NCBI GenBank assembly: GCA_965262935.1
Contig: OZ253572.1
Coordinates: forward strand, 6,462,066-6,526,065
Length of the DNA stretch: 64,000 bases
Direction of reading: 5' to 3'
From: Spirochaetia bacterium
Lineage (GTDB): Bacteria > Spirochaetota > Spirochaetia > SZUA-6 > Bin103
Shown here: positions 2,642-40,502 of the stretch, one piece after another
Numbering within the stretch: position 1 is the stretch's first letter
Layout: the number at the start of each line of letters is the position of its first letter
Made by a program: the position numbers and the translations under genes
The notes under the pieces: generated by a model
Database searches by the model: none
The model's input: the letters and a program-made list of their open reading frames with translations, nothing else
Told to the model about the DNA's origin: nothing

Positions 2642-3352
<711 letters not shown>

Positions 3353-4171: not shown

Positions 4172-4178
4172 GACGACC

Positions 4179-4400: not shown

Positions 4401-5540
4401 CGACGACTCGATCCCCGCGCCACCGAACCCGACTTGCTGTATGCCGTCGAGCGCAAGGCCGGCGATATTCCCGCGTGGCTGACGCCGGACCCCTGTTGGT
4501 CAGCCTTGTGCGCCCTGATCGGACGCTTCGATGGCAAGCGCGCGCGCCCCGCGGGGCACGGCCTGGTCTGGTTCTCAGCCCCCTGGGCTTTCGCAAGACC
4601 CCCTTTACCCGCGAGTTGACCGTGCGCGAGCGCTTCCCGCTCGATCCGCAGGCACAGGTCGCCGCCGCACTCGCCGAGCCTGATCGGATGGAGCGACCTG
4701 TGGCGCGACTACGACCGCCCCGAGCAAGATGGCCACCTACCTGAACTACCCCGGCCCCATCCTCAACCTGCCCACCAAGGCATCCCGCTCAACCCTCGGC
4801 TCGGATTGAACGGCCGCTGACGCGTACCGCGCGGGTCACGCTTTGCAGCATAGGCGAACCACCCCGGACTTGCCGTGGTGATTCATGCAAGCAAGCAATG
4901 GCCACAGCCGAAACTGCCCCAACCCAGCAGAGCGACAAGACCGTCACGATTGAAGTGAATGCCCACAAAGTCAAGATGCCAGCGGGCCGATCACACCAGG
5001 AGCCCAGTTCGAGCAGCGCCCAGCGCTTCAAGTGTCCCGGCGCAACAACCTCGCCCTGAGAGACAACAGAGTCGAGACGGCGGCATTCGACGATGAACTC
5101 ACTCTTATCGCACCCATCGCACCCGTAAAGGGTTGACCGCTCGCCACCTATGCTCAGGCAGCGACCGGCGCACTCGTGCGTGTCGGTGGCGGCGCTGCAT
5201 CCAGACCGGAGCGGAACGGTTCGCGTGGTGCACCGACGAGCGTATCAGACCGACCTCGCTACGACAAAAAGCTGCCCACAGTATCCAGCCGGAAGAAAGG
5301 CTGCTCAAATACCCGACTATCTTCCGCCGGACACGAAGTGCGATTTCGGCTCGCCTTGCGGATATCAGCCCGCAACTCGAGCGGCGGAGCCATCTCCCAT
5401 ATATTACAAACGGCGTGTGTTGGACCGAGCCGGACTGCGCCGACCGAAGGCGCGCGCCGCGAAACCCTCGGCGTTGGTGATGCTGGCGCTACTGCCGGTG
5501 GCCCGGATAACGTACAGTCCCTGGCGCCCGGAATGGACGA

Positions 5541-5888
5541 TCACGGAACCTCCTCGCCGTTGACGGCCAGAATGTCGAACTCCCAGCGCCGCTCCCCATA
5601 GTTCTTCTTCGCATTGGTTATCGTGTGGTCCACTGCGATGCCGCGCTGTTGCAGCAGTTTCACGAGGTCGCCCTCCACCAGGGACTCCATCAGCTTCCCC
5701 CACTGCCCGTTGAACAGCTCGTCGAGTTTGCGCAGGCGCAGGTCGGTCTCCTGCATGCGGCGGTCGGTGTCCTGACCGAGTCGCTTCAACACCTGGTCGG
5801 TTTCTTTCCGGCTCTCCGCTACCTCGCGCAGGATGTTCCAGATCTCCTCCGGCGTCGCCGGGTCCCGATGTCCGTTCTGGTCAGCCAT
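5541..5888 (-). pseudogene. DUF3782-like PD-(D/E)XK family protein, 3'-truncated. It retains only the N-terminal coiled-coil and the start of the nuclease core.
   Basis: ...GQWGKLMESLVEGDLVKLLQQRGIAVDH...ERRWEFDILAVNGEEV then a stop. Full-length relatives continue for another ~80 aa. A paralog lies at 12927..13640. Confidence 0.45.
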
Positions 5889-5901
5889 GCCGCAACCCGG
5901 C

Positions 5902-8900
5902 CTACGGGAGGTTCAGGGGTATGTCGACCTCGCTCTCCGGTATGCGGTACGCCCGGTAGCTCCAGGCATCCTCACCGGCCACGCGCATGTTCATCTCCAG
6001 GTGCGCAGTGCCGGTTACGGGGTTGACCTCGCTCACCGCGATTGTCTTGTCCAGCGCGACCGTGCGGCCGGTGGCGCTGCCGCCCCAGCTAATCAGCCAA
6101 TGCACGCTGCCGACGAAGTCTTCGAGCACGTGCACGCCGCCCCGGTAGGGGAAGTAGCCGTGCGTGGCAGGCAGCCGGTATTCGCGCTCGTACTCCGCCT
6201 GCGTTCCGGACGATATGTCGTACTCCACCGCGCGCGAGAACGCGTTAGAGTCCTTCCTGGGGCCGATGCACTGTACGCCGTTGTCGTACATTACGACGGT
6301 GTTGGTAGAGGTCAGCGTGACGTGGTGCGGTCCGCAGAACTCCTCGACGACGGCATTATCCGAATGCTCGACCAACTCCAGGAACTCGGTCGTGGAACTC
6401 TCCGGCGGCGCGGTGCCGCCGAGCTTCCACTCGACAGCGCCGGTCGTTCCGTCGATCCGCAGCACCTGCGAGCAACCGCGGGACGACACCACGAAGTCCC
6501 CGTCTGCCAGCAGTTGCAGCGAATTGAATTGAGCATAGCCCGGCGGATACGACAACCCACCTCGGAGGAACATCCCGACCTTGCAATCGGTGCCCCACTG
6601 GAGCACGTCTCTATGGGTCCAGGAGTTCCACGTGAACTCGGACACGCCGATCGCACCCGCGCTCCTGCGCTGGATGGCCGAGTCGGCAACCTGTTCGGTT
6701 TCGGTTCCTCCGTGGTCCGAGAAATCGCGCGGCTCGTCATCGTAGTAGGACAGCATCGCGTAGTCCCCGTCAGCGGCAATCTGAAAGTCGTGGCCATCGG
6801 TCTGCGACAGCGGCGACACCGTGGTGAGGGTAGCGGTCACTTCGAGCCGCTCGTTGAGCAGGTCTATCTCCCAGTTTCCGAACGGAGAGTCGTTGACGTT
6901 GAACACCTCCCTTCGGGCCACCGAGAAGCGGCTGTTGCCGTGGGGCTTGAAGTCCATCACCCAGAAGTTGGTATCCGTGAGCAGACGATGGAACCGCGGC
7001 ACGCCATTGTTGTCGACCATCGCCATGAACATGGTGCGGCTGCTGTAGCTGCCGTAGGCTGGCGTGAGGAGCAGCAGCCCGTCCTTGACCTGATCGGTCC
7101 TGGTCAGGATTTCGATGGTCGGGAAGGCGGCGGGCAGGCAGTGCACGACGTAGGTCCTGGTGTCGCCGGCGTCACTGACTTCGATCGCCAGGTCGTGGTC
7201 GCCGCCGACCGCGACACTTGCGTTCAGGATCCCGGTAGTGGATACCACGTTGTCGGCGGTATCGGCGCGCAGCAGCGTGAGTTGCGCGCCGTCGCGCCCG
7301 GTCGCTGCCGCGACGGTGAGCGTCGGCGAAGTGTTGCAGGTCAGCGCGTAGTGCAGGGTGTCGGCGTCGAACGTCGGGTACATGGCGCCGCCGCCGGTCA
7401 CCGCCAGGGATGAGAGCTCAAGCGCAGTCGAATCCAAGGGGTCCTCGGGGTCGACGGGATCCACCAGGTCCACCGGGTCCGTGGTAGTCGTATCGCCATC
7501 GTCGGCGATCGTGCCGGTGGCGCTGGCGTCGGACACGGTGGCGCCCGCGGGGTTGCTGAGCGTAACCGTGAACGTCTCGGTTTCCTCGGCGGTGCTGTCA
7601 TCCAGAATCGCTACATTGACGGTCGCCGTCGTGGCGCCGTCCGCGAACGTCAGCGTGCCGTTCGCGGACGTGTAGTCCGCTCCGGAGGTGGCGCTCCCGT
7701 CCGCGGTCTCGTACGCCACCGTGACCGTACCTCCGCTCGCCGGATCGAGTCGCACCACGAACGGCATGCTGCCGTCTCCCGAGCCCTCCGTCAGACTCCC
7801 GTTGCCGATGCTCAGCTCCGGTAACTGGTCGTTGTCCGCGATCGTCCCGGTTCCCTGCGCGGTGGCCACGGTCGCGTTCACCGCCGCCCGCAGGGTGACC
7901 GTGAACTGTTCGGACGGCTCGTCCAGCGTGTCGTCGACTACCGTTACTGCGATCGTCCGGCTCGTGGTGCCGGCACGAAACGTCAGCGTGCCGCTCGCGG
8001 CCGTGTAGTCCGAACCGGCCGCGGCGCTCCCGTCCGCCGTCGTGTACTGCACCGTGACCGTGCGTCCGCTCGCCGCGTCGAGCCGCACCACGAACGGCAT
8101 GGTGCCGTCACCCGAGCCCTCCGTCAGGCTGCCGTTGCCGATGCTCAGCTCCGGTGCCTGGTCGTTGTCCGCGATCGTCCCGGTTCCCTGCGCCGTGGCC
8201 ACGGTCGCGTTCACCGCCGCCCGCAGGCTGACCGTGAACTGTTCGTCCGGCTCGTCGATCGCGTCATCGGCAATCGGCACCGTCACCGTCCGCACCGTGG
8301 TGCCCGCGCCGAACGTCAGCGTACCGCTCACCGGCGCGTAGTCGCTCCCGCCCGTGGCAGTCACGTCCGCCGTCCCGTATTGCACCGTCACCGTGCGCCC
8401 GCTCGCCGGTTCGAGCCGCACCTCGAACCGCATGCTGCCGCCGCCCGTGCCCTCGGTTAGCCCGCCGTTGCCGATGCTCAGCCCAGGCAGCGCATCCTCG
8501 TCCTCGATCCGCCCTGTCGCCGTCAGCGTCGCCCCGCCGCCGGCAAGTTGCGCGTTGTCGGCGTTGCGCAGTGTCACCCTGAACACTTCGGTGTCCTCGT
8601 TCATGCTGTCGTCGTTCACGGTCACTGCGACCGTCTGCGCCGCCGTCGACCGCGCCGGGAACCGCAGCATGCCGCTCGCCGGCGTGTAGTCCACCCCCTC
8701 GGTGGCCGTGTCGCCGCTCGAGTCGGTGGCGTAGTCCACGGTCACGACCTCGTCGCTGGCCTGGCTCAGGGTCACGGCAAACACTATCCGGCGCGCCTGC
8801 TCGGAGGCCTGCGCCGGCGCCATCGCCAGCGTCGGTACGTCGTCCTCCACGATGATCACCCTGACCACCGGGCCGGTTACGCCGTCGTAGCCGCCGCCGC

Positions 8901-9774
8901 TCGCCGTGTGCGCAAGCTCCACCGCGATGTCGGCCAGCGCATCGATGTCCTGCTCCGCCGTCAGCGTCACCTGCCGAGCGTCTCTCCACTGCGCTGGCGC
9001 GAACACGAACTGCTCCGGGGCTATGGTCAACTCCGGTGCATCCGCCGCGGTCACGGTTACCGGCGCCGTCGGCCGTGACCCGAGCCGTACCTCGTAGCTC
9101 GCGCTTTCTCCCTCCGTCACGAACAGCTCCAGCGGCTCGATCGCCAGCGCACGGGCGTCATCGTCCTGAATCGTTCCGGTCGCCGTTGCCGACGCCAGTG
9201 TCGCCCCTTGTGGGTCGCTGAGCCGCACGGTCAGGGTCTCACCCGCCTCGTCTACCTCGTCGTCCACGAGCCGCACCTCGATCCGCTGCGCCGTGGTCGA
9301 CTCGGCCGGGAATGTGAGCCGGCCGCGCGCCGCCTGGTAGTCCGCTCCCGCCTTCGCCGTGCCCTCCACGGTGTCATAGGCCACCGTGACCGCGGCGCCG
9401 GCCGTCCCGCTCAGGCTCACCGTGAAGCGCAGCACGCCGTCAGACTCTGCTGCGCCTGCCGCCGCTATCGCCAGCACCGGCGGCCCTTCCGCCGGCGCGA
9501 CGGGCGTGCCGCCCGGCTGGTCCACCGGCGTGCTCTCCGGCTGCGCGCTGTCCGGCTGTTTCGCGGCCTCGACGTGAGCCATCTGGCACCCCGCCAGCGT
9601 CAGCGCCAGCGCCAGCGCCAGCAGTAGCGGGACAGCGGCCGACCACAGTGCTGCAGGCAGGAGCAGGCGCCGCGCTGCCAGCCGAAACGGCGACCAATCT
9701 GCCGAGCCGCCGCCGGGTGTCTGTGCGGCGCTCTGGGCGCTCTGCGCGCTCTGGCTGGAGACTTTCTGCAACAT
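5902..9774 (-). CDS. large lipoprotein (1290 aa). Contains ~7 Calx-beta repeats, a cadherin-like beta-sandwich, and a C-terminal arylsulfotransferase (ASST)-like beta-propeller domain.
   Basis: Lipobox LTLAGC. Repeated G.L.F..G.T...V.V.I.DD..DEP.E.F.V.L units with near-identical copies. A LSSLAVTGG...HYAL motif. C-terminal ~500 aa carry GHDF, WNSW and FCGPHHV motifs shared with the paralog at 10474. Confidence 0.8.
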   Translation of the reverse strand: MLQKVSSQSAQSAQSAAQTPGGGSADWSPFRLAARRLLLPAALWSAAVPLLLALALALTLAGCQMAHVEAAKQPDSAQPESTPVDQPGGTPVAPAEGPPVLAIAAAGAAESDGVLRFTVSLSGTAGAAVTVAYDTVEGTAKAGADYQAARGRLTFPAESTTAQRIEVRLVDDEVDEAGETLTVRLSDPQGATLASATATGTIQDDDARALAIEPLELFVTEGESASYEVRLGSRPTAPVTVTAADAPELTIAPEQFVFAPAQWRDARQVTLTAEQDIDALADIAVELAHTASGGGYDGVTGPVVRVIIVEDDVPTLAMAPAQASEQARRIVFAVTLSQASDEVVTVDYATDSSGDTATEGVDYTPASGMLRFPARSTAAQTVAVTVNDDSMNEDTEVFRVTLRNADNAQLAGGGATLTATGRIEDEDALPGLSIGNGGLTEGTGGGSMRFEVRLEPASGRTVTVQYGTADVTATGGSDYAPVSGTLTFGAGTTVRTVTVPIADDAIDEPDEQFTVSLRAAVNATVATAQGTGTIADNDQAPELSIGNGSLTEGSGDGTMPFVVRLDAASGRTVTVQYTTADGSAAAGSDYTAASGTLTFRAGTTSRTIAVTVVDDTLDEPSEQFTVTLRAAVNATVATAQGTGTIADNDQLPELSIGNGSLTEGSGDGSMPFVVRLDPASGGTVTVAYETADGSATSGADYTSANGTLTFADGATTATVNVAILDDSTAEETETFTVTLSNPAGATVSDASATGTIADDGDTTTTDPVDLVDPVDPEDPLDSTALELSSLAVTGGGAMYPTFDADTLHYALTCNTSPTLTVAAATGRDGAQLTLLRADTADNVVSTTGILNASVAVGGDHDLAIEVSDAGDTRTYVVHCLPAAFPTIEILTRTDQVKDGLLLLTPAYGSYSSRTMFMAMVDNNGVPRFHRLLTDTNFWVMDFKPHGNSRFSVARREVFNVNDSPFGNWEIDLLNERLEVTATLTTVSPLSQTDGHDFQIAADGDYAMLSYYDDEPRDFSDHGGTETEQVADSAIQRRSAGAIGVSEFTWNSWTHRDVLQWGTDCKVGMFLRGGLSYPPGYAQFNSLQLLADGDFVVSSRGCSQVLRIDGTTGAVEWKLGGTAPPESSTTEFLELVEHSDNAVVEEFCGPHHVTLTSTNTVVMYDNGVQCIGPRKDSNAFSRAVEYDISSGTQAEYEREYRLPATHGYFPYRGGVHVLEDFVGSVHWLISWGGSATGRTVALDKTIAVSEVNPVTGTAHLEMNMRVAGEDAWSYRAYRIPESEVDIPLNLP

Positions 9775-9883
9775 GCTCGTCCGTGCTACGATTGTACCGT
9801 TGGTTCAGGTGTGCGTCTCGGGCGCAGCGGACGTAATGCACCATATCCGCACCGCCGCAGGCTGAAGGAGTGAAGCAAATCGC

Positions 9884-10459
9884 ATGGCACAAACAGGACT
9901 GCTCGACAGGGCCGCATGCAGGACGCTGACAGGCGCCGCCATGGGGATGGTTCTCGGGATACCACTGCTGTTGAGCGGCTGTGGTGCCGCCACCCCGTTC
10001 AACCCCATCTTGCTTGAGATCTCGGAACACGTTGCTACCGGCCCCGACTTCCTGGCAGACGGGCGTATCGAGAGCGTGCACGATGTCGACTATTTCGAAA
10101 TCCTGATCAGGCGGGAGTTGGCATCCGTGATCGTGATGACCACGGGCACTACCGATACCGCTGGTGCGGTGCAAACGGTAGACCGAATGGAGATCAAGGA
10201 ACAGTGTGAGGGTGAAGAGCCCGCGCGGCCCTGCATCTTCTCCTACGACGCGGACACCGCGCACAACGTGGAGCGCTCGGACGCGTTCAACAGCATGGAA
10301 CCGTCGGGCAACTTCGTATGGGAGGGGAACCTGCCGGGTCCCGACGGCGATGAAGAATATCGCACCTACTACATTCGAGTGACGGGACAGCGCGGGTCGA
10401 CCGGCGACTACGTGTTGACCGTCGAGCTCAACGAGGGCGAAGGCCCGATGTACTCGTAG
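9884..10459 (+). CDS. lipoprotein with a pre-peptidase C-terminal (PPC)-like beta-sandwich domain
   Basis: GAAGGAG RBS. Signal peptide with lipobox LLSGC. DVDYFEI...GDYVLTVEL pattern typical of PPC domains. Confidence 0.6.
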   Translation: MAQTGLLDRAACRTLTGAAMGMVLGIPLLLSGCGAATPFNPILLEISEHVATGPDFLADGRIESVHDVDYFEILIRRELASVIVMTTGTTDTAGAVQTVDRMEIKEQCEGEEPARPCIFSYDADTAHNVERSDAFNSMEPSGNFVWEGNLPGPDGDEEYRTYYIRVTGQRGSTGDYVLTVELNEGEGPMYS

Positions 10460-10473
10460 GCGGGGCCGTTGTC

Positions 10474-12063
10474 ATGACGCACGGATTTTCAGCCGGCCGG
10501 AGACGGTTGCTCGCGGCACTCTGCATCGCGTTGGCTGCTCTGCTCGCCATCAGTTGCACGGTGCCGGGCGCGGATCGCGCGGATCGCACGGACGCGGCGC
10601 CAGGACATGGGCGGCTGAGCGCTCTACGGGTGACCGGCGGGGAGGGCCTGTTTCCCGCATTCGATCCCGGCGTGCACCACTACGCGGTGCGGTGCGAAGA
10701 TGGAACGACGCTGCAGATCGCCGCGCAGGCCGTGGACAGCGATGCCCGCCTCACGCTGCTGCACAACGGTCGCACCACGACCGGCGCCGTGGAAGAGACG
10801 GTCACGGTCAACAGCGACCACGACATTGCAATCGAAGTCCGCGACGGGCGGGGCACCTCGACCTACTACGTGCACTGCATTCCGCTTGAGTTCCCGGACA
10901 TCACGATCGAGAAACGGACCGCGGCCGTGACTGACGGCTTGCTGCTGATGACTCCCGGCGTACGCCGAAGCGAAATCTCGTGGCTGGCCATCGTGGACAA
11001 CAACGGCGTACCGCGCTGGGTGCGCAAGCCGAACGTGAGCGCGCGCAACTTCCGGCACTACGCCGACGGCCGGTACTCCTACTCCGAACGCGCCGCCGAC
11101 GGCAGTGAAGACGACACTGAAGACGCGGTGATCCTGGACGCGGAGTTCAACCGGATCGATACCGCCACGCTCGTCGGCGACCTGCTGGCCGAGCACACCG
11201 GCGGCCACGACTTTCTGATCACCGACCGCGGCACCTACCTGCTCATGTCCTACTATCCCGCGGAGCGCGATCTGAGCGGGTTCGAGTGTGAAGACGAAGA
11301 TGGTTCCGCCCGGCCGTGTTCGACGATGGAGCCCGCCGACGACTCGGTGATTCAGGAGGTGACACCCGCCGGGGACGAGGTGTTCCGGTGGAACTCCTGG
11401 GATCACCTGAAGATAGCGGATTGCACGATCCATCGCTTCCCCAACGACTATGCGCACCTCAACTCCCTGCACGAGCTGGATGGGGACATCGTGGCATCGC
11501 TGCGCGGCTGTGCGCAGGTAGTGCGCATCGAGCGTGCCACCGGCGCCGTGGTGTGGCAGATGGGCGGCACGCTGCCCATGCGCGCAGATCGGCCGATGCC
11601 TGCCACCGGCGCCGCCGCATTCCTGAAGGTGGTCGACGACCCGGCGGAAGAGTTCTGCGGCCAGCACCACGTAACCGCCACCACGGACGGCAGGCTCCTG
11701 ATGTTCGACAACGGCAACCACTGCCTCGGCGGGCGCAAGAACGAGCGCCCGTTCACGCGCATCGTGGAGTACGACATCTCTTCCGGCACCGAGGCGCGCT
11801 GGGTGCGTGATTACCGGCTGCCGCCAGAGGACGGAATCTCGACCTCCGGCGGCGGCGTGGTGGCGCTGGCCGGCACCGGCCACTGGCTCATCACCTGGGG
11901 CAACAACGGGCCGATGAACGGGGTGAGCGAAGTGGACACCACCGGCACGGAGATTTTCCGCCTGAGCATGTCCCGAAACGGTCAGAGATACGGCACCGCC
12001 CGCGTATACCGGGAAAGCGAGGCCACCCTCCGCCTGCAACCCAACTTGCCGGACCCACGCTAA
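10474..12063 (+). CDS. lipoprotein (529 aa): cadherin-like beta-sandwich plus ASST-like beta-propeller. Paralog of the C-terminal half of 5902..9774.
   Basis: Lipobox LAISC. LSALRVTGG...HHYAV. GHDFLITD, WNSWDH and FCGQHHV motifs are collinear with the large lipoprotein. Confidence 0.8.
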   Translation: MTHGFSAGRRRLLAALCIALAALLAISCTVPGADRADRTDAAPGHGRLSALRVTGGEGLFPAFDPGVHHYAVRCEDGTTLQIAAQAVDSDARLTLLHNGRTTTGAVEETVTVNSDHDIAIEVRDGRGTSTYYVHCIPLEFPDITIEKRTAAVTDGLLLMTPGVRRSEISWLAIVDNNGVPRWVRKPNVSARNFRHYADGRYSYSERAADGSEDDTEDAVILDAEFNRIDTATLVGDLLAEHTGGHDFLITDRGTYLLMSYYPAERDLSGFECEDEDGSARPCSTMEPADDSVIQEVTPAGDEVFRWNSWDHLKIADCTIHRFPNDYAHLNSLHELDGDIVASLRGCAQVVRIERATGAVVWQMGGTLPMRADRPMPATGAAAFLKVVDDPAEEFCGQHHVTATTDGRLLMFDNGNHCLGGRKNERPFTRIVEYDISSGTEARWVRDYRLPPEDGISTSGGGVVALAGTGHWLITWGNNGPMNGVSEVDTTGTEIFRLSMSRNGQRYGTARVYRESEATLRLQPNLPDPR

Positions 12064-12162
12064 GCACGAACGTGAATCGGCGTCGTTTCGTGACCAGCGG
12101 GGCTGCCTGACAGTTCACGAGACACGGGCGCCGCGCAACAAGCAGTCGCGCCCGGCGGGAGG

Positions 12163-12864
12163 CTACAGGACGGCGCCGTAGGTCTCGGTGATGGCTTTGG
12201 CGGCGTATTCGTCGGAGGCGTAGGCGAAGCCGCGGTCGCCCCAGGCGGCGCCCCAACTGTTGCGCACGATGAAGGTGTCGGCGGTGAATCCCACCAGGCA
12301 GATCGCGTGGCCGCCGCCGTCCTCCTGGTCGGGGCGATACACGGCCAGTTCGCCGTGCGTCCTGCTGGCCTGCCGCCAGGTGCGGTCCACCTCCACGCGC
12401 GCCAGGATCGGGCCCTGGTTGGACAGCCAGCGGCGCCAGGCGGTGCGGTTGCGGCGCAGGTTGTGGTAGCTGGCGATGCGGTACCTGGCCGCCATGGTGT
12501 AGAACGCGGCGACGCGCAGCGGGCTCAGGCCGCCGTCCATCGGCAGGGCGCTGTCGAGCACGCAGCCGTAGCGGCGGGCGACGCGCAGCGCCCGCTTGGT
12601 CTGGGTGCCGGCCGACTCGATGAAGGTGGTGGGGTAATCGGTGAGGCGGTCGGTTTCCTTGTTGGCCATCCAGATAAAGCGCGGCGACGGGCGCTCACCG
12701 GGCGGCAGCAGGCCGGCTTTCCAGTAGTGCCAGTGCAGCACGCCGTCGGCCGCGGCAAAGCCGACGCAGGCGCCGGTGGAGCCCTGGTCCCTGACCGGCC
12801 AGTCGGGCCGCCGCAGATCCACCTCCGGGCGCGCCTTGGCAGGCGACACCACCCCGGCCGCCAC
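12163..12864 (-). CDS. papain-like cysteine peptidase (C1 family)
   Basis: QGSTGACVGFA (catalytic Gln/Cys), GGHAICLVGF (His), NSWGAAWGDRGF (Asn-Trp). Confidence 0.75.
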   Translation of the reverse strand: MAAGVVSPAKARPEVDLRRPDWPVRDQGSTGACVGFAAADGVLHWHYWKAGLLPPGERPSPRFIWMANKETDRLTDYPTTFIESAGTQTKRALRVARRYGCVLDSALPMDGGLSPLRVAAFYTMAARYRIASYHNLRRNRTAWRRWLSNQGPILARVEVDRTWRQASRTHGELAVYRPDQEDGGGHAICLVGFTADTFIVRNSWGAAWGDRGFAYASDEYAAKAITETYGAVL

Positions 12865-12926
12865 CGCGTCCGCGAACGTCCAGTCGGCCTCGACGCCGGC
12901 CGACGGCTCGCAGTTGAGTATGAAGC

Positions 12927-13640
12927 TCAGACCCGTTCGGAGATTTCCAGGCAGAGTACGCGGGCGGCGTCCGCCCGGTCCCGGTCGGCGGCATCGATTC
13001 GATACCCGGCGACCAGCGCCACCGCCTCCTCTCCGAATACGGCGGCAAGGGCGTCAGCACTCTCCCGGCTGCGGCGGATGTCCTCCGCATCGATCCGGCC
13101 GGCGACCTCGATCGCCACCCAGATCGGCGTTCGCTCGCGGCGCCGTTGCGCGTGCAGGATGATATCGGTGACGATGAGCCGGTCCTCCTGCCGGGCACTG
13201 ATCCGGCCCGCTTCTTCGGCCGCGGCGACCGATTCCTGGAACTCCGCATCTGCCTGGTGCAGCGCGCTGCACATGATGCGTGCCCGCTTCAACTGCAGGT
13301 GCTGACTGACCAATGGTTGAATCCGGCGATGCACCCTCAACTCCAGGTCGGAGCCCTTGAGGTAGCCGACGTCGTCCTTCAGCCCAGCCACGTCGGCCTT
13401 GACCTCCGCCATGTCGGTCTTGAGTTCGGCCACGTCCGTCTTGAGAACCGCCACGTCGGCCTTCAGTTCGGCGATATCCTTCTCTATGCGGTCCAAGCGG
13501 GCCGGCATGCCCAGGAACTCATTGGTCAGGAGTGCGCGCAGCAGCATGCGCTGAGCCTCCGGGTTAGCCTGCAACTCGGCGATGATCCGGGCTACCAGAG
13601 ACTCCGGATCAAGATGTTCGGACGCGTTGTCGCTCATCAT
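12927..13640 (-). CDS. DUF3782-like protein. Coiled-coil repeats (D.A.LK.DV x4) plus a C-terminal PD-(D/E)XK-like domain.
   Basis: Tandem ATG ATG start. Heptad-like IAELKADVAVLKTDVAELKTDMAEVKADVAGLKDDV. C-terminal ...IWVAIEVAG...; homologous to the fragment at 5541..5888. Confidence 0.6.
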   Translation of the reverse strand: MMSDNASEHLDPESLVARIIAELQANPEAQRMLLRALLTNEFLGMPARLDRIEKDIAELKADVAVLKTDVAELKTDMAEVKADVAGLKDDVGYLKGSDLELRVHRRIQPLVSQHLQLKRARIMCSALHQADAEFQESVAAAEEAGRISARQEDRLIVTDIILHAQRRRERTPIWVAIEVAGRIDAEDIRRSRESADALAAVFGEEAVALVAGYRIDAADRDRADAARVLCLEISERV

Positions 13641-13959
13641 GGGGGTTCCGCGATGCAATGCAGGCAACCTATTGCGGTTTTGACGCGCGGTCAAGGAACG
13701 CAGATCCGCAGAATCCGTGGCAGCAGGACCGCCTTCCGGTGCCACCGGGGCACGCATAGCATGGTATTTCGCCTCGCTCCCTCTCAGACAAGAGCCGTGG
13801 CCTCGCAAGCCTCGCCGCACCGCTCGAAGCGCCCCGGTTCTTGAATGTTTGGTCTGTTATCGAGTCAAGCTACCACTGACGGCGCGATGTGCGCAAGTGT
13901 GCAGCGGATAGATGGTACCGATGGCGCAGGACGTTCCCGAGACACCGGGGGTCAGCGGG

Positions 13960-14643
13960 TCAGCGAGCGGCTTGCGGGGATTCCGGCAGGCGGGTGGCGC
14001 AGAAGTGGCCGGTGACGCGGCGGGCGTGGACGCCGCTCGCCCAGGTGCCGGTGAAGCCGCCCCGCGGCATGATGTGGGTGAGGTGGAGCGCCATGTAGCC
14101 GCCGTCGACGGCCGCATTGCCGGCGCGGCGGTTGGCGATGGAACCGAAGCGCAGCGTGATAGCCACCGGCGCCTGCCCGGCGGTCCACTGTTCCAGCACC
14201 AGCACGCCCGGCTGCAGCGGGTCGCGGGAGCCGATGTCGCCGATCGCCAGTGCGTCCACCGCCGCCAAGTCAATGGCCGCCCAGCCGTGCAGCGACAGCA
14301 GCACGCTTTCGTCGGGAGCCTCGCCGCCGGTTGGAAGCCGGCGCAGCGACGGCTCGTTGTCATTCAGCTCCAGGGTTCCGGTGACCGTACGCCCGGCCCC
14401 GTCGCCGGCGGCTACCAGGGTCAGGTGGTAGCGCCCGGCGCCGCGAGCCAGCGTCGCAGCCGCGGGCAGCTCGCCTTCGCGGGCGACGCAGGCGGCAATC
14501 GGCGTAGGGGCCCGCTCCTCGCCGCCGCCGGCGCAACTCGCCACCACCGGCGCCAGCAACGCGCACAGGGCGCCGATCCAGTAGCCGCGAACCGGCTGAC
14601 GGGTACCTGCGCCACGGTGTGAACGCAAACGGATCGACACGTG
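13960..14643 (-). CDS. hypothetical lipoprotein
   Basis: Signal peptide plus lipobox VVASCAGG. Start assigned to an in-frame GTG ahead of the signal peptide (uncertain). Confidence 0.45.
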   Translation of the reverse strand, partial: HVSIRLRSHRGAGTRQPVRGYWIGALCALLAPVVASCAGGGEERAPTPIAACVAREGELPAAATLARGAGRYHLTLVAAGDGAGRTVTGTLELNDNEPSLRRLPTGGEAPDESVLLSLHGWAAIDLAAVDALAIGDIGSRDPLQPGVLVLEQWTAGQAPVAITLRFGSIANRRAGNAAVDGGYMALHLTHIMPRGGFTGTWASGVHARRVTGHFCATRLPESPQAAR

Positions 14644-14892
14644 TGTTCGGATGCTTCGGGTCAGAGGACTATGGCCGCCAGCGTTTCGTCCGCTAGCTTC
14701 TCTCGTAGATCGCGCGGCGCGGGGATCACTGCCATTCGGAACGAACATTACAGGCTGGTGCGGTTGGAGTCAATGAATTGTGCGGGGGCTGCGGGTGCGC
14801 GGGTCTTGCATCGAACCCAGGGGCCGGCAGCGGGAGCCGAGGCCGTTGCGCCTGGCGGCGCTGGCCGTTGCGACTCCCGCTGCCGGCAGCCG

Positions 14893-15291
14893 TTACGAGG
14901 CCAGCTCGGCGGCCGGCTCTTCCTTGTCGGCGGTGGCGGACTCCTGATCGGAGCCCGTTGCGCGCCGCTGCGGCTGGAATTCGACGTGCTCGGCCACGAT
15001 CACCAGCTTGGCGCGCGCGTTGCCGTCACCGTCCTCCCAGCGTTCCTGCTTGAGGCGGCCCACGACGCGCACGCCGCGGCCCTTGGCGAGGTGCTCGGCG
15101 CACACGGTCGCCAGCTTGCCCCAGGTGGTGGCCTCGACGAAGGACACCTCCTCGTGGCGCTCGCTGTCCACCTTGTAGGAGCGGTTGGACGCCACCACAA
15201 GCGTGCACACCGCAGTCCCCTTCGGCGTGTAGCGGATCTCGGGATCCCGGCACAGGTTCCCTTCCAGCAATACGGAGTTGAGATTGTTCAC
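14893..15291 (-). CDS. ssb: single-stranded DNA-binding protein
   Basis: LEGNLCRDPEIRYTPKGTAV...ATTWGKLA...GRLKQERWEDGDGNARAKLVIVAEHVEF, a classic OB-fold SSB pattern, with an acidic C-terminal tail. Confidence 0.85.
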   Translation of the reverse strand: MNNLNSVLLEGNLCRDPEIRYTPKGTAVCTLVVASNRSYKVDSERHEEVSFVEATTWGKLATVCAEHLAKGRGVRVVGRLKQERWEDGDGNARAKLVIVAEHVEFQPQRRATGSDQESATADKEEPAAELAS

Positions 15292-15422
15292 AACAACCCT
15301 CCTGATATAGTCGGCGGGACCGGCGCCGCAGTGGCTTGTCCCGCTCTCGCTATCTATAACGGGCTCCGGGCGGTGCCGCTTCAGGGGGATGCAACGATCG
15401 AAGGTAGGTCTACCAATAGAAA

Positions 15423-15462
15423 ACGGCGCGTCCCCCGAAGGAGACGCGCCGTCATGGTTAGC
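15423..15462 (-). terminator. rho-independent terminator downstream of the 15478..16917 gene
   Basis: Perfect 10-bp GC-rich inverted repeat (ACGGCGCGTC / GACGCGCCGT) with a 4-nt loop, followed on the minus strand by TTTCTATT. Confidence 0.5.
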
Positions 15463-15477
15463 GAGAGTTGCGAAAAC

Positions 15478-16917
15478 CTAGTACTTGATCTTGGTCCAGA
15501 GGCTGACCACACCACTCTGGGCCGCATTGGCGCCAGAATCGATGAGCTGGCCGGTCTTCCACTTCAGGCCGAACGTAGTCGCCGGAATCGCCTCGGTCAG
15601 GACCGCCCGTACCTCAAACGCCACGCTGGCGTCACCGCCATCGAGCTGATTGACGGTGACCGTCGTGCCCGGAGTGAGCGTGCCGCCGAACGTGTCGCTC
15701 AGGTGGTAGTCCAGCTTGCCTTCCACGAACAGATCCGACTCGTCGTTCACGTCCTGCGCGGCGGCCTCTGCTGTGTCGCCGTTGGTGATGTCGAACATCC
15801 CCCACGTCAGCGACAGGTCGAGACTCTCCACGAGACCGTTCTTGTCGGACAGGTTCACCTTTACGTCAGTGGCGACCGATGCCACGTTCGAGAAGATGAA
15901 GTCCGACTTGAGGGTGGTGTTCGGGGTCAGCGTAACGGTCGCGTTACCGCCCGCTTCCCAGTACATGGCCTCGTTTACGTCGGTATCCACGTTGTCGTCT
16001 TCCTGGGTCATCTGAACATCGGCACCCGCGGAGAGGGAGACATCGCCGAAGTCGGTCGTCAGCTTGGCACCGATGCCGGTGTCATCATCCTTGTCGCTAT
16101 CTTCGGGTTCGTCACCATTTTCGAGGCCTTGCACAAACGCCAAGTCGAGCGTGGCCGGTCCGACGTTTACCTTCAGATCGGCACTGATCGCGTAACTGCC
16201 GTCGTGAGCAGCCTTGGTCTCATCCAGATACTTGGTAGCGTCAACGTCTTTGACACCGTCCTCGGACTCGGAGTCATACGCCTCCTCGGAGAGGATCCCC
16301 ACCGCGATGCTCAGGTCGGCGGTGGTGTAGCCGACCGTGACGCCGTGGCCGTTTAGGTCCAATCCAACATCCTTATCCGCATCATGACTCTCGGCCGCGC
16401 GGTCGTCGTCCTCATCGTCCTCAATGTGTGGGATCAGATCGGCCTTGCTTGCAGGCGCGGCGAATATCTGCAGCCAGAGCGGGCCGTTCTTGAGCGTGGC
16501 GACGATGTCCGGCTCCACGACATACAGCTTGCTGCGCCCCTTCTTCTCTTCGACGCCCTTTAGATCAGGCATCGTTTTGCCGTCTGGGACCGACGCGGTC
16601 GTAGTCACGAACTCGGTGGAGTCCTCGTCGTCACTGTTGATGACGATCTGGAAGTCGTTCAACTCGATCGAGCCGTACCATCCTCCTGACATGTCGACCA
16701 TCTCGGAGTTGTTGGTCGACTGCTTGGCGACGAGCACGATCTTGATGTTGGCGCTGGACTCGTTCTTGAATCCGAACTGCTCATCATCGATGTCGTAGCC
16801 CGCAGTGACAGTCGCATCACCGGAGATGCTGAAGTTCGTTCCGATTGCCATTTGCCCATACAGGCCGGCAGAGCCCGCGGCAAGTAGCACCACTAGCAGA
16901 AGTGAGAGTTTCTTCAT
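15478..16917 (-). CDS. secreted, very acidic protein with a C-terminal aromatic residue. Putative outer-membrane beta-barrel or porin-like protein.
   Basis: Strong RBS AAGGAGGAAGTG before the ATG. Signal peptide MKKLSLLLVVLLAAGSAGLYGQ. Alternating hydrophilic/hydrophobic strands. Ends ...SLWTKIKY. Local GC is markedly lower than the neighbours. Confidence 0.6.
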   Translation of the reverse strand: MKKLSLLLVVLLAAGSAGLYGQMAIGTNFSISGDATVTAGYDIDDEQFGFKNESSANIKIVLVAKQSTNNSEMVDMSGGWYGSIELNDFQIVINSDDEDSTEFVTTTASVPDGKTMPDLKGVEEKKGRSKLYVVEPDIVATLKNGPLWLQIFAAPASKADLIPHIEDDEDDDRAAESHDADKDVGLDLNGHGVTVGYTTADLSIAVGILSEEAYDSESEDGVKDVDATKYLDETKAAHDGSYAISADLKVNVGPATLDLAFVQGLENGDEPEDSDKDDDTGIGAKLTTDFGDVSLSAGADVQMTQEDDNVDTDVNEAMYWEAGGNATVTLTPNTTLKSDFIFSNVASVATDVKVNLSDKNGLVESLDLSLTWGMFDITNGDTAEAAAQDVNDESDLFVEGKLDYHLSDTFGGTLTPGTTVTVNQLDGGDASVAFEVRAVLTEAIPATTFGLKWKTGQLIDSGANAAQSGVVSLWTKIKY

Positions 16918-17524
16918 CACTTCCTCCTTCACTTATTGCCGGGGCCTATTACATCGGGGCCCTTAGCTGGGCCAACGACCCGCAGAACCCTCGCCCCCGC
17001 TATCCGATGGCGCAATAATGCATTGCCCAATCGGACGTTGTCAACCTGTTGCGCCCCGGAAATCGAGTAGCCGCTCACCTTGCGGTCAGCGGGCGCACGA
17101 TCAGTCTCCAGAACTGGTCAACTCCAGGATACTCCTACAGTAACGCCAGCGCAACCGCCAGCGCAACAGAGGGAGAATATCACGAAGCCACCACTGTGTA
17201 AACAGTCACCGGAACGGGCATTATGCCCGCACGTCCAAACAATTGCAAGCGGCCCGCCTCCTTTGCGGAAGCCGCACCTTGTACCAGGATGCGAACGCTG
17301 TCAAACACGCGTTCTCCGAGTGTATCAATGCAATAGTCATGCCAAGCTGCGATGGTGGAAAAAGGACCGTGGCAGGCTACCACAAGGGCGGCGCACACGG
17401 TAATCATGCGTCTCATAGGTGACATTTTTGTAGGAAATGATAGCAAAGGCTACGCACACGTAGGGTAAGGACCTTGCGAAACAGGTTGACCGGCTGCGGC
17501 GGCGGTCGTAACATCGCAATTCGC

Positions 17525-32984: not shown

Positions 32985-33028
32985 CCTGCACGGACCGGCG
33001 GCATTATACTGGAGGTGGAATTCAATTA

Positions 33029-33408
33029 TGGCAGAATCGGCAAAGATCGAGGGCTACCTGCTCTCGCTCTCCCTTACTTACGAAACCGTGGAGGATGGCA
33101 CCTGGCTGATCAACGACGACGAGAAGGGCCTGGAGAACGTCCTGGTCATTCTCGCGGATCCCGTCGTGATCATCCGGGTCAAGGTCATGAGCATCCCCGG
33201 GCAGCAGCGCGAGTCGTTCTTCGAGCAGCTCCTGCGCCTCAACCAGTCGGACATGATCCATGGCGCCTACGCCCTCGAAGACGACCATGTGATCCTGCTC
33301 AACACGCTGGTGGGAGCAACCCTCGACCTTGAAGAGTTCCAGGCCACCCTGGACGCCATCGGACTCGCCCTGGCCCAGCACTATCAGACGCTGGCCAAGT
33401 ACCGTTAG
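33029..33408 (+). CDS. YbjN-like (putative sensory-transduction/chaperone-like) protein, upstream partner of pspA
   Basis: GGAGGTGG RBS. 126-aa acidic protein. Its position immediately 5' of a PspA/IM30 gene is the conserved arrangement. Confidence 0.55.
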
Positions 33409-33426
33409 AGAAGAGGAGGTCACCGG

Positions 33427-34116
33427 ATGGGACTGTTTGACCGCTTCCGGCGCGTGGTGCAATCCAACATCAACGAGATGATCACCAAGGCCGAGAATCC
33501 CGAAAAGATGCTCAACCAGTTGATCATGGAGATGAACGAGCAGCTCATCGAGTCCAAGAAGAGCGTGGCATCGGCGATCGCCGACGAAAAACGGCTGCAG
33601 CGGCAGCTCATCGAGCAGCGCCGCAACTCCGAGTTGTGGGAGCAGCGCGCCATGGATGCGGTGCGCGCCGGCAAGGATGACCTGGCCAGGCAGGCGCTGG
33701 TCCGCAAGCAGGAACATGCCGAATACGTGGGCAGCTACCAGGAGCAGTACGACGCCCAACACACTTCGGTAGAACAGCTCAAGAACTCGTTGCGGCAACT
33801 GCAGCAGAAGATCGAAGAGGCCAGCCGCAAGAAGAACCTGCTGATTGCGCGCGCCAAGCGGGCGGAGGCGCAGCAGCGCATTCAGGCCACCATCAGCGCG
33901 ACCGGCAACACCTCGGCGTTCGACGCCTTCGACCGCATGGCCACCAAGGTGGAGGAGGCGGAAGCACAGGCGGAGGCCACTGACGAACTGGCCCAGATCG
34001 ACGACGGCGACGCGCGTCTGGACAAGCAGTTCCGCGAACTGGAGTCCGGCGGCGGCGCCGACCAGATGCTCGAGGATCTGAAGTCCAAGATGCGTCAGAT
34101 CGAGGACAAGACCTGA
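33427..34116 (+). CDS. pspA: phage shock protein A / IM30 / Vipp1 family
   Basis: MGLFDRFRRVVQSNINEMITKAENPEKMLNQLIMEM N-terminus and a coiled-coil body, both diagnostic of the PspA family. Confidence 0.9.
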   Translation: MGLFDRFRRVVQSNINEMITKAENPEKMLNQLIMEMNEQLIESKKSVASAIADEKRLQRQLIEQRRNSELWEQRAMDAVRAGKDDLARQALVRKQEHAEYVGSYQEQYDAQHTSVEQLKNSLRQLQQKIEEASRKKNLLIARAKRAEAQQRIQATISATGNTSAFDAFDRMATKVEEAEAQAEATDELAQIDDGDARLDKQFRELESGGGADQMLEDLKSKMRQIEDKT

Positions 34117-37158: not shown

Positions 37159-37411
37159 TGGTGCCTCGCAGTGCTGGTTCGCTGGTTTTACCCACTAGAA
37201 CATTGCGGTGCGCCCGAGTGCGGCACCGCCCGAGGGCAGCACACTACACCCCGGTGCGCGCGCGGGCAGAAGCGGGTCGGCCCTAAAGTATGGGCATCAT
37301 CATGAGCAGTCAACGAATGACTCCATCTTGAGTTAACCGAATTGACGCGGGGCGCCGGGGCGCCTATCGTGCCGGGCGTGAAGGCTCACGCATCGTGAAG
37401 GCTCACGGGCC

Positions 37412-37909
37412 GTGAAGGCGCGCATGACGCTGCGCTCCAACCCGCGCGCACTGGTGCCGGTGGCCGTGGTGGCGGCCCTGGTAGCGGGCGCGGTGCTGGT
37501 GGCGGCCCTGGTACAGGTGGTCGTGGGTCTGGTCGCCCTGCTGCTGACCGGCTACCTCGCCTACCGCATCGTGCGCTTCATAATCAAGCACTTGGCGAGC
37601 TACGTGGCCGCGGACGACGACGGCGTCACCATCTGCGAGTTCGGCGAGGACACCCACCACCACCCGTGGGGCGAGGTCACCTTCGCCGGCCAGGCGCGCG
37701 CCGCCGACGGCACCGAGTTGCTGTATGTGTACGTGGAGCAGGACGACCGGCTGATGACCGTGTCGCGCGAGTTCGAGAACTTCGCACCGCTGCGCGGCGA
37801 ACTGGCCCGCCGCGTGCCGCCCACCGACCTGGAGCTGGCCGCCGGCGAATCCCTGTCCGACCACCTGCGCGGCCTCCTGCCGGACACTGAAGACTCTGAC
37901 GAAACCTGA
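37412..37909 (+). CDS. hypothetical membrane protein
   Basis: Two N-terminal TM segments and an acidic C-terminus. No domain recognised. Confidence 0.4.
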   Translation: MKARMTLRSNPRALVPVAVVAALVAGAVLVAALVQVVVGLVALLLTGYLAYRIVRFIIKHLASYVAADDDGVTICEFGEDTHHHPWGEVTFAGQARAADGTELLYVYVEQDDRLMTVSREFENFAPLRGELARRVPPTDLELAAGESLSDHLRGLLPDTEDSDET

Positions 37910-38002
37910 TGGTGAGCGCTTGTTGTGTGGTAGTCTCCCACTTTCCCCGAGTCTTACACATTCGCTCGCAGCGGTGCTGGTACCGATTGGAGAAAGTGCT
38001 CA

Positions 38003-39157
38003 ATGATAAAAAGACTGTACGTCGACAATTACAAGTGCCTCGTCAATTTCGACCTGCCGTTACAAGAGTTGTCCCTGCTGCTAGGACCGAGCGGTACTGG
38101 AAAGACCTCTGTGCTCGACATCATTTTCGCCTTGAGAAGGCTTCTCTCTGGGGATGCACGAGTAGCCGATCCTGACATTTTCCCTGACCGAACCCTCACC
38201 TGTTGGCAGAGTCGTGAACTACAGGTCTTCGAGATTCAGGCGTTCTTGCAATCAGAGACATTCACCTATCGACTCGAAGTGGAACATCAGCGGTCCGCGC
38301 ACTTGTCGCGTATCAGCCGCGAAAAGCTGGAGGTGGAGGGGACACCGTTATTCGATTGTGTGCAAGGGGAAGTGCAACTCTTTCGCGACGATCCCAGTGG
38401 TAGGACAACCGAGGGACCAGTCTATAGCACAGACTGGAGGGAGTCGGCTCTGGCCAGAGTCGCTCCGGGGCGCTCCAATGAACGCCTTACCCGCTTCCTT
38501 GAGTATATGGGACGAGTGCTCGTGTGCGGCGTCAATCCTCCTGTTCTGCAGGCGGAATCGACTGAGGAGAACTCGGTGCTGCAACGAGACGCCCGAAACT
38601 TTGCCGATTGGTACCGGCACACGCTGCAGGAACGCCCGGACCTGTATTTCGAACTCAAGAAGACACTGACCGATGTGATCGGCGCCGGATTTGACGGGAT
38701 CCGGCTTGAGAGAGTTGGCACGGAAACCCGCGCATTGATGGTTGCGTTCGCCAATCAAGCAGACACGGATTCCGGCCTAACCTACCCATTGCGTTTTGAC
38801 CGCATTTCGGATGGCCAGCGCGCGCTTATCGTGTTGTACAGCCTCATTCATCTGGCAGGAGGGGGAGGATACACGTTATTCCTTGATGAGCCCGAAAACT
38901 ACGTCGCACTAAGGGAGCTTCAGCCATGGCTTATGAGTCTTGAGAACGCCTGCGGAGACGTCGTATCGCAAGCCGTAGTGAGTTCTCATCATCCCGAATT
39001 AATCGACTATCTGGGATACGAGAGCGGCATTATGTTGCAGCGCGAAACATCCGGAGTTATCACGGTGAGCCGCCCACAGACTAAGTCAGGAGACGGGACG
39101 GAAGATACAATCGGTCTGAAACTCTCCGAATTGGTCGCCAGAGGTTGGGAACAGTGA
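38003..39157 (+). CDS. ABC-type ATPase of the AAA_21/AAA_15 (OLD/AbiLi/RloA-like) class. Putative abortive-infection ATPase.
   Basis: Walker A LLGPSGTGKTSVL. Signature/Walker B region ISDGQRALIVLYSLIHL...YTLFLDEPENYV. H-loop SSHHPEL. Lower GC than flanks. Stop overlaps the next gene start. Confidence 0.8.
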   Translation: MIKRLYVDNYKCLVNFDLPLQELSLLLGPSGTGKTSVLDIIFALRRLLSGDARVADPDIFPDRTLTCWQSRELQVFEIQAFLQSETFTYRLEVEHQRSAHLSRISREKLEVEGTPLFDCVQGEVQLFRDDPSGRTTEGPVYSTDWRESALARVAPGRSNERLTRFLEYMGRVLVCGVNPPVLQAESTEENSVLQRDARNFADWYRHTLQERPDLYFELKKTLTDVIGAGFDGIRLERVGTETRALMVAFANQADTDSGLTYPLRFDRISDGQRALIVLYSLIHLAGGGGYTLFLDEPENYVALRELQPWLMSLENACGDVVSQAVVSSHHPELIDYLGYESGIMLQRETSGVITVSRPQTKSGDGTEDTIGLKLSELVARGWEQ

Positions 39158-39699
39158 GCAGACGGGTCCAGCTCGTCGTATTGTGCGAAGACCAACAGCA
39201 GCGGACGTTCATACTCCAGTTCCTCAAGAAAACAAGAAGGAACGACCCTGTGCTCCGTGTAGAGATGTGTCCCAGAAACTGCGGATCAGCCGAGCAGTAT
39301 GTACGGAAACGCTTCCCGAAAGAAGTTGCCGAACACCACCGGAGACACGTGTCTCAAGCGCTGATCGTAATGCTTGATGGCGACAACTGCGGCGTCGCTG
39401 CACGCATCGCTGAGCTTGAGAAAGCGTGCCGTAAGGCCAAAGTACGCGCCGGACATCCGGAAGAAGGAGTCCTGGTAGTCGTGCCGACATGGCGAATCGA
39501 AACGTGGTTGGCGTATCTCAACGGCGAAACCGTTGACGAGTCGAGGCGGAACTATCCGCACTTACTCCGTCCACGAGATTGCGGCCCCCATGTGACTCAA
39601 CTCGTCGATATGTGTCAGAGACGTCAGTTGCGGGAACCTGCACCGGATTCCCTCGTAGCGGCTTGCACTGAATACCGCCGCTGGATTGCTAACGTTTGA
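39145..39699 (+). CDS. DUF4276/RloB-like small protein, translationally coupled partner of the ATPase
   Basis: TTG/GTG start overlaps the ATPase stop (GTGA). N-terminal VQLVVLCEDQQQRTFILQFL and C-terminal VVVPTWRIETWLAYLNGE resemble the VEG.TE...F and E.W motifs recalled for DUF4276. Confidence 0.55.
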   Translation: MGTVSRRVQLVVLCEDQQQRTFILQFLKKTRRNDPVLRVEMCPRNCGSAEQYVRKRFPKEVAEHHRRHVSQALIVMLDGDNCGVAARIAELEKACRKAKVRAGHPEEGVLVVVPTWRIETWLAYLNGETVDESRRNYPHLLRPRDCGPHVTQLVDMCQRRQLREPAPDSLVAACTEYRRWIANV

Positions 39700-39743
39700 G
39701 GGAATCGGTGTCGGCCGAGCGTCGGATCTTGTCCACGTTCTCG

Positions 39744-40502
39744 CTAGCAACCGCCGCCGCCGCGCTGCCAGGGGGCGGCGCGCAGGATGGGAGCGTAGGC
39801 GTCGTCTTCGAGGCTGATGCGCAGGGCTGAGAGTTCGGCGGCGCTGGGCTCGCGATCCTGGAATTGCAGGCGGCCGACCCGTTCCACCACCGCCACCGGG
39901 GTGCGCTCGTCGCCCTCGCCCATCTCCAGCACCGCGGCGGCGGCGATCGACTGCACGAGGTTGGTCTTTTCCATGGTCAGCTTGCGGCCGTACAGGTCGG
40001 GCGTGCCGGTGTAGTCGCGCAGCGCCTGGAAGCCGCAGTGGGCGATGCCGCGCCCCACCACGCCCCAGTTCAGCGGGATGCCGCCCGAGTCGGCAAGGAT
40101 CACCCCCAAGCGCCGCTCGCCGGCGGTGTGTTCGCGCAGCCGCCGCCACAGGTGGTTGGCGCTGCGCTGCGGGTCGCGCGGCCAGGGCGCCAGTTGGCCG
40201 GCGGCGTTGGACTGGTCGATGCCGGCGTTCACGAACATCCAGTTGCCCTTGATGGTGAGCATGATGTCGTAGCGCGAGGCGTGCGCTTCCAGGTAGTACT
40301 CCGCCTCGCGGCGCACCAGGTCGTGCAGCGCCGCGCGGTCGCCGGCGCGCCCGGTGAGGCGGCCCTCGGCGATGCTGACGATCTTGGTGGCGACCACCAG
40401 CACGCAGCGGTCCGGCAGCGGGGACGGCAGGCTGGCGGCGAGCACCGCCGCCAGGTCGCTGCCGGGACGGATCAGCGGGGTGCGGACGGCGGTAACGGTC
40501 AC
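39744..40502 (-). CDS. CofE-like F420-0:gamma-glutamyl ligase family protein
   Basis: RCVLVVATKIVSIAEGR and MFVNAGIDQSNA match the CofE G-rich/KIVSKAEG and ANAGID(E/Q)SN motifs. ~250 aa. GTG start 16 nt after the upstream gene. Confidence 0.7.
   Translation of the reverse strand: MTVTAVRTPLIRPGSDLAAVLAASLPSPLPDRCVLVVATKIVSIAEGRLTGRAGDRAALHDLVRREAEYYLEAHASRYDIMLTIKGNWMFVNAGIDQSNAAGQLAPWPRDPQRSANHLWRRLREHTAGERRLGVILADSGGIPLNWGVVGRGIAHCGFQALRDYTGTPDLYGRKLTMEKTNLVQSIAAAAVLEMGEGDERTPVAVVERVGRLQFQDREPSAAELSALRISLEDDAYAPILRAAPWQRGGGGC

Follow-up and report, generated by a model that had tools for sequence, protein, structure and literature searches.

Pairs that join an ABC ATPase to a TOPRIM protein (OLD, Gabija, PARIS, HEC-01, MADS3/4) are a major and recurring design of bacterial immunity, and few of them have known triggers or substrates. 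PARIS combines the ABC ATPase AriA with AriB, a DUF4435 TOPRIM nuclease. In MADS (MAD3/MAD4), in the Menshen effectors and in AbiL, an AAA_15/AAA_21 ATPase goes with a small Toprim protein of the DUF4276 or RloB type. Hma-embedded candidate 01 (HEC-01) consists of the ABC ATPase HEC-01A and of HEC-01B, a DUF4276 TOPRIM-like protein (Payne et al., bioRxiv 10.1101/2024.01.29.577857). BREX or BREX-related taxa, at least 1,242 of them, have also been reported to carry TOPRIM-linked OLD-type ABC modules, which were read as backup effectors (PMC12839542). In the present work, we analyzed a two-gene cassette of this general make-up, located at positions 38003-39699 (+ strand) of a 64,000-nucleotide stretch of contig OZ253572.1, from a Spirochaetia bacterium. 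This whole stretch is hereafter named “the window”, and positions follow its numbering throughout. An initial annotation, made from the sequence, had proposed a candidate abortive-infection module matching AbiL, RloA/RloB or, more distantly, PARIS. On comparison with the systems above, the cassette is probably a self-contained, horizontally spread two-gene conflict module (anti-phage or abortive-infection) of the ABC-ATPase plus TOPRIM-nuclease class. Among named systems, the PADLOC candidate HEC-01 comes closest, and not AbiL, RloA/B or PARIS.

The ATPase and its small partner

The ATPase gene (38003-39157, + strand) starts with ATG and codes for 384 amino acids (aa). Its translation contains all the motifs listed in the initial annotation, namely Walker A GPSGTGKTS (residues 28-36), signature SDGQR (269-273), Walker B LFLDEPE (293-299) and H-loop SSHH (327-330). 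The VVLCED and IETWL motifs attributed to the small protein were recovered as well. The length given for this protein, 184 aa, had to be corrected: an open reading frame (ORF) of that size does exist (39145-39699, + strand), starting from an in-frame TTG at 39145, and homolog alignments begin at MSRxVQ, which makes the GTG at 39154 the actual start. Counted from this GTG, the small gene (39154-39699, + strand) codes for 181 aa. As had been noticed, the ATPase stop codon (TGA, 39155-39157) lies inside the GTG start, and the junction (39154-39157) reads GTGA, a 4-bp overlap. A Shine-Dalgarno-like word, AGAGG, is found 9 nt 5' of the GTG. Both genes are intact, with complete catalytic motif sets.

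The AAA_21/AAA_15 type assigned to the ATPase is borne out by Pfam (AAA_21, 2.1e-11; AAA_15, 3e-8; ABC_tran, 1.7e-6) and by profiles of defence ATPases. Its best PADLOC match is HEC-01A PDLC04182 (E 3.6e-19, residues 2-359 of 384), and five more HEC-01A models match at 1e-8 or below. Weaker PADLOC matches follow, with AriA, PDC-M25A, mad3 (7.7e-14) and AbiLi (1.7e-13); those of AriA cover the protein in part only (residues 239-335 and 1-42). On the NCBIfam MAD3 equivalog, the score of 48 bits is far below the cut-off of 420. The catalytic K34, S269/G271, D295 and H329 are invariant in 47 ATPase homologs. In the AlphaFold2 model (predicted local distance difference test score, pLDDT, 85.6), the protein is an ABC head that lacks a coiled coil and carries a beta-rich insert at residues ~73-142. 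This fold groups with Rad50 and SMC heads, which are the best structural matches, and with PtuA, retron ATPases and AriA; it does not group with transporters, and such a grouping is what the initial annotation had named as evidence against itself. By its set of Walker A, Q-loop, signature, Walker B and H-loop motifs and by its fold, the protein is thus a non-transporter ABC ATPase of the SMC/Rad50/OLD type, and its N-terminus matches Ts OLD (6p74) by sequence (1.1e-7). Among its most conserved stretches is the C-terminal tail, residues 369-384 (39107-39157; GLKLSELxARGWE), which follows a linker that is variable and of low model confidence. This tail may dock the partner protein, or else its conservation may reflect a nucleotide-level constraint from the ribosome-binding site of the downstream gene.

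For the small protein, no family match was found in Pfam, PADLOC, NCBIfam or PHROGs; in Pfam and PADLOC, DUF4276, RloB, DUF4435 and HEC-01B were absent even at E ≤ 1. The best direct profile hits, to VWA (0.033) and PDC-M38B (0.015), were rejected as meaningless. The protein family is large and has no Pfam model; its clusters number 119 at 90% identity and 1,736 at 50% identity (E ≤ 1e-3). When 134 diverse members were scanned singly against Pfam and PADLOC, the recurrent matches were weak ones, to TOPRIM-related families only. In Pfam, these were DUF3226 (39 of the 134 members, best E 1.8e-6), DUF4276 (30 members, 6.8e-6), RloB (4 members, 0.002) and OLD-like TOPRIM (2 members, 0.0078). In PADLOC, they were HEC-01B (64 members, best E 2.9e-8), mad4 (29 members, 5.9e-5), PDC-M38B (27 members, 5.3e-5) and AbiLii (5 members, 8.4e-5). 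One sampled member scored 16.6 bits on DUF4276 (PF14103), the gathering score of which is 30.2 bits. In the profile-profile alignment with DUF4276 (hhalign), Glu is paired with Glu, DxD with DxD and IETW with LETF; with a single HEC-01B sequence, at an E of 0.16, the alignment is likewise correct motif to motif, and neither of the two is significant alone. A search of PDB sequences with the profile of the family alignment returned noise only, and our literature search found no paper on DUF3226.

The resemblance to DUF4276 and RloB proposed at the start therefore stands as a remote homology seen through family members, and falls as a direct profile match; the window protein matches neither the RloB (PF13707) nor the AbiLii profile. 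These comparisons place the small protein as a remote relative of DUF4276 and DUF3226, and as a member of neither. PADLOC would probably not call HEC-01 at the window locus, because the small protein has no HEC-01B match at E ≤ 1.

The small protein is best described as a TOPRIM-like putative nuclease, given the matches of its family members and its acidic residues (numbered here in the 184-aa TTG frame starting at 39145). The best fold matches of its AlphaFold2 model (pLDDT 91.6), which are modest, are the TOPRIM regions of the OLD nucleases 6nk8 and 6p74. E15 comes after strand 9-14 of the model and D78-x-D80 after strand 71-76, as in the TOPRIM superfamily, where a conserved Glu comes after strand 1 and a DxD motif after strand 3; DUF4276 and RloB were placed in the Toprim superfamily on the same criteria (PMC12065111). 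Conservation across the 134 members is 100% for E15, 96% for D16, 100% for D78, 98% for D80 and 93% for E119, and this set parallels the two-metal acidic set of AriB, E26, D30, D88, E90 and E122 (PMC11464382). Four cysteines (C14, C146, C157 and C174), in or around the C-terminal helices, are conserved in 81-93% of the same members, which suggests a zinc site or disulfides. This cysteine set is specific to the window family, and is no known feature of DUF4276 or of other TOPRIM proteins.

HEC-01 and the window-type pair share a two-gene layout, with an ATPase of ~370-395 aa followed by an overlapping TOPRIM-like gene of ~180-220 aa, and both occur inside methylase-containing defence operons; the window family differs by its cysteine-rich C-terminal helical part. 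The window pair is not the AriA plus AriB pair that makes PARIS. Its small protein has 181 aa whereas AriB has ~300, and matches neither DUF4435 nor AriB; its ATPase carries a beta-rich insert in place of the helical insertions of AriA; and no phage- or satellite-borne copies of the family were found. MADS, Menshen and AbiL resemble it in their type of ATPase and small Toprim protein, but the window small protein matches neither mad4 nor AbiLii. None of the other MADS or Menshen genes is adjacent, and no methylase or mad genes surround the pair, when a MADS assignment takes a MAD3 score of at least 420 bits and other mad genes nearby. The closest solved relatives of the window proteins are the OLD nucleases and Gabija GajA, in which ABC ATPase and TOPRIM are fused. 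The sequence-divergent subtype that the initial annotation had envisaged is supported: the cassette represents a large family, sister to the DUF4276/HEC-01B group, which current profile libraries and defence finders leave undetected. It leaves the known picture of how ATPase plus TOPRIM systems are built unchanged, being an unannotated branch of a known class and no new kind of system. A profile made for the small protein would annotate hundreds of genomes, mostly from environmental phyla.

Distribution and turnover of the cassette

In a scan of one genome per species, at least 503 loci were detected among 185,579 species genomes, and 80 loci were fetched. The fetched carriers are Spirochaetia, Binatia, Gamma- and Alphaproteobacteria, Acidobacteriota, Planctomycetota, Gemmatimonadota, Acidimicrobiia, Myxococcota and Rhodothermales metagenome-assembled genomes (MAGs), and hosts come from about ten phyla. 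In 82 of 83 loci, the gene directly upstream of the small gene, and co-oriented with it, codes for an ATPase ortholog, and the expectation of a conserved gene pair elsewhere was thereby confirmed. The ORF pair is not due to chance, because the small protein forms more than 100 clusters and is modelled with a high pLDDT, and because the arrangement recurs in all but one of these independent loci. The sole locus lacking the ATPase is found in a Paracoccaceae MAG (L070; OY759511.1, 8492-10567). There, a 450-aa TnpB/IS605 OrfB-like ORF with a zinc-ribbon motif occupies the place of the ATPase, and the small ORF starts only at an internal Met; this cassette has been disrupted by an insertion element.

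Stop and start codons of the two genes overlap in 70 of 81 loci, by 4 bp in 61 of them and by 1 bp in 9, the junction words being GTGA (39), ATGA (24) and TTGA (7). A Shine-Dalgarno-like word is present upstream of the small-gene start in 70 of 74 loci. Since the genes are nearly always adjacent, with overlapping stop and start codons, translational coupling is suggested. Identities of the two proteins correlate (r = 0.80 over 2,850 pairs), and the ATPase and the small protein do co-evolve. A conserved third gene was looked for, and none is associated with the pair in more than 9 of 82 loci. The largest cluster of flanking genes, an ABC exporter that is unrelated and varies in its distance and orientation, was rejected as a cassette partner.

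The small gene is uncalled in the contig from which the window comes and in the L085 contig described below. The set of skipped or shortened genes includes L084:11143-11697 and the proteins P0007, P0099-P0103, P0109-P0111 and P0115, and several database entries have only 107-113 aa, from an internal Met76. GTG or TTG account for 48 of the 74 overlapping starts. Gene callers probably skip or shorten the small gene because its GTG or TTG start sits inside the upstream stop codon.

The low-GC island described in the initial annotation, set between housekeeping genes, was also recovered. Over 37750-39750, the GC content is 0.53-0.58, versus 0.66-0.75 on either side (500-nt windows), and the low-GC stretch carrying both genes is ~1.8 kb long. 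Its neighbours in the window are an H+-pyrophosphatase, a 165-aa hypothetical protein, an F420-ligase-like gene and an Hsp70-like gene. In 76 of 81 loci, the GC content of the pair is below that of the flanks (mean difference -6.1 points). The cassette is foreign in composition, and was horizontally acquired.

Traces of evolution at the chromosomal site of the window could be followed in three MAGs (L005, L007 and L008), in which both flanks are 80-92% identical to the window at the nucleotide level and a cassette is present at the exact same position. These three cassettes share only 64-70% nucleotide identity with that of the window. At the protein level, flanks are 73-92% and cassettes 63-68% identical to the window for L005 and L007; the corresponding values are 82-94% and 57-62% for L008. 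In all three, homology to the window ends at the stop codons of the neighbouring genes, and both spacers are variable, shortened or deleted. Divergence of the cassette therefore exceeds that of the flanks, and relatives rank differently by cassette and by flanks. The six cassettes of highest similarity fall into one clade, and two loci with other flanks also belong to it. Either diversifying selection or allele replacement could account for such a fast divergence.

A closer copy of the site, L085 (ENA ERZ26694896 ctg116670, 10001-11664, corresponding to window 38003-39761), has flanks 95-97% identical to the window and the same cassette. Its ATPase gene has a 96-bp in-frame deletion (window 38692-38787) between short TTTGAC repeats, and its small gene is frameshifted after ‘NGET’. 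These lesions may be explained either by decay of the module or by a long-read assembly error.

The unit is autonomous and is found in unrelated genomic contexts, sometimes inside BREX operons. In at least four loci, L017, L019 (Holophagales), L021 and L022, a type 1 BREX operon holds the pair, which is flanked there by pglX and pglZ; the BrxC, PglX, PglZ and BrxL matches are at E = 0 to about 1e-290. Remnants of pglX are found upstream of the pair in L045 and L074. About 76 of the 82 loci, window included, have no BREX genes within ~10 kb. L021 belongs to a cultured strain, Planctomicrobium sp. SH661 (NZ_CP195791.1, within 5346766-5367314; 29-17335 of the locus), and in its BREX operon a canonical HEC-01 pair also occurs, set between brxC and pglX (HEC-01A, 2e-158; DUF4276 protein, 72 bits versus a cut-off of 30.2). 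BLASTP detected no similarity between the window-type and HEC-01 small proteins of this locus, and only the Walker A region was similar between the ATPases. From this coexistence, and from the absence of similarity between small proteins, it follows that the window-type cassette is a separate family, able to coexist with HEC-01. In L021, brxL is followed by a gene for a 765-aa protein, the N-terminus of which is weakly TIR/SEFIR-like.

Proposed action and rival readings

By analogy with PARIS AriA/AriB, OLD and Gabija, a nucleotide-dependent oligomer of the ATPase would hold the small TOPRIM protein inactive, and the conserved C-terminal tail of the ATPase may dock it. A phage cue, for which a phage anti-restriction or anti-BREX protein or an aberrant nucleic acid are candidates, would alter the ATPase and free or activate the nuclease. 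The latter would cut nucleic acid (tRNA or DNA) via a two-metal acidic site formed by E15, D16, D78, D80 and E119, and cutting would stop phage production at the expense of the cell. We infer the abortive-infection role itself from comparison.

Several points weigh against an anti-phage conflict module. Sequestration and release, trigger and substrate are all taken by pure analogy. The window small protein has no direct nuclease or TOPRIM profile match, and the profile-profile comparison of its family with a 31-sequence DUF4276 alignment is weak (hhalign, E 0.0068, probability 5.6%). The TM-scores of its TOPRIM fold matches are low (0.34), amid many generic Rossmann-like hits. No hypervariable sensor region or insert was found in the ATPase, the variability of which is spread out. 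For HEC-01, the nearest named system, tests in E. coli showed no protection from any of the phages used (bioRxiv 10.1101/2024.01.29.577857). Most sampled neighbourhoods, window included, consist of housekeeping genes and are not defence islands. Finally, no phage, plasmid or viral copies were found in IMG/VR, PLSDB and INPHARED.

A first rival reading is an addiction module of the toxin-antitoxin (TA) type, with the TOPRIM protein as toxin, the ATPase as its neutraliser, and a selfish persistence devoid of any dedicated anti-phage role. The tight coupling and strict pairing of the two genes would be expected for such a module, as would solitary islets among housekeeping genes. The pair is often found near small TA genes (PemK/MazE, HI1420-like helix-turn-helix, PIN/DUF433, Uma2), decayed copies exist (L085 and L070), and ABC ATPase/TOPRIM pairs include bona fide TA modules (PMC11464382). 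However, the repeated embedding in BREX operons points to immunity, and plasmids, on which addiction would be most important, yielded no copies. We consider this explanation rather unlikely; it also overlaps with an abortive-infection function, and does not exclude it.

The same BREX embedding might indicate that the pair is an accessory of BREX or restriction, a backup effector or guard that fires when Ocr-like phage inhibitors disable BREX, stand-alone copies being remnants or acting in trans. The position between pglX and pglZ in L017, L019, L021 and L022 and the pglX remnants of L045 and L074 speak for it; such a role has been proposed for TOPRIM-linked OLD-ABC modules (PMC12839542), and PARIS senses Ocr (PMC11464382). 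Planctomicrobium sp. SH661 offers a concrete cultured system for embedded modules as BREX backup. The large majority of loci free of BREX genes, and the H+-pyrophosphatase, F420-ligase-like and Hsp70-like neighbours in the window, make this explanation doubtful, and less probable than the addiction module. A housekeeping or DNA-repair factor, in which a RecF/Rad50/OLD-like ATPase and its nuclease partner serve host DNA metabolism, would agree with the Rad50/SMC heads as best structural matches and with the housekeeping neighbours, but is highly improbable in view of the patchy distribution (at least 503 of 185,579 species genomes), the consistent GC deficit, the unrelated contexts, the much faster divergence of the cassette than of its same-site flanks and the decayed copies in close relatives.

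A more precise role can be put forward tentatively. This distinct family (at least 500 species and ~1,700 clusters, nearly all in uncultivated lineages) might constitute an ATPase-gated TOPRIM toxin serving as a guard, which would sense phage inhibitors of BREX or restriction and respond by cutting a specific substrate, tRNA for instance. If this were true, the allele turnover observed at fixed sites would reflect a trigger-specific diversification, and the coexistence with HEC-01 in one BREX operon would mean that different triggers are sensed.

Islet borders and other features of the window

The left border of the low-GC islet is a 93-nt spacer (37910-38002, + strand), which follows the upstream gene's stop codon (37907-37909) and contains the ribosome-binding site of the ATPase gene, GGAGAAAG, 8 nt before the ATG. 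The right border is a 44-nt spacer (39700-39743), separating the stop of the small gene from that of the F420-ligase-like gene, which is convergent. The 37910-38002 spacer gave no match to the sigma-70 promoter consensus, and no sigma-70 consensus promoter or terminator is specific to the cassette. A search of the islet borders for signatures of mobile elements gave no direct or inverted repeats, tRNA or integrase.

Two tandem repeats are present near the islet, with no evident link to the cassette. The first, a 17-nt repeat (37377-37410), lies just 5' of the gene for the 165-aa hypothetical protein, and the second, a 30-nt repeat (37467-37526), lies inside the N-terminal hydrophobic region of this protein. 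A second GC dip, at 33000-34000 (0.58-0.63, with a strong AT skew), was considered as another island and rejected, as it corresponds to a gene for a PspA/IM30-like coiled-coil protein. This gene adjoins a YbjN/CesT-like gene.

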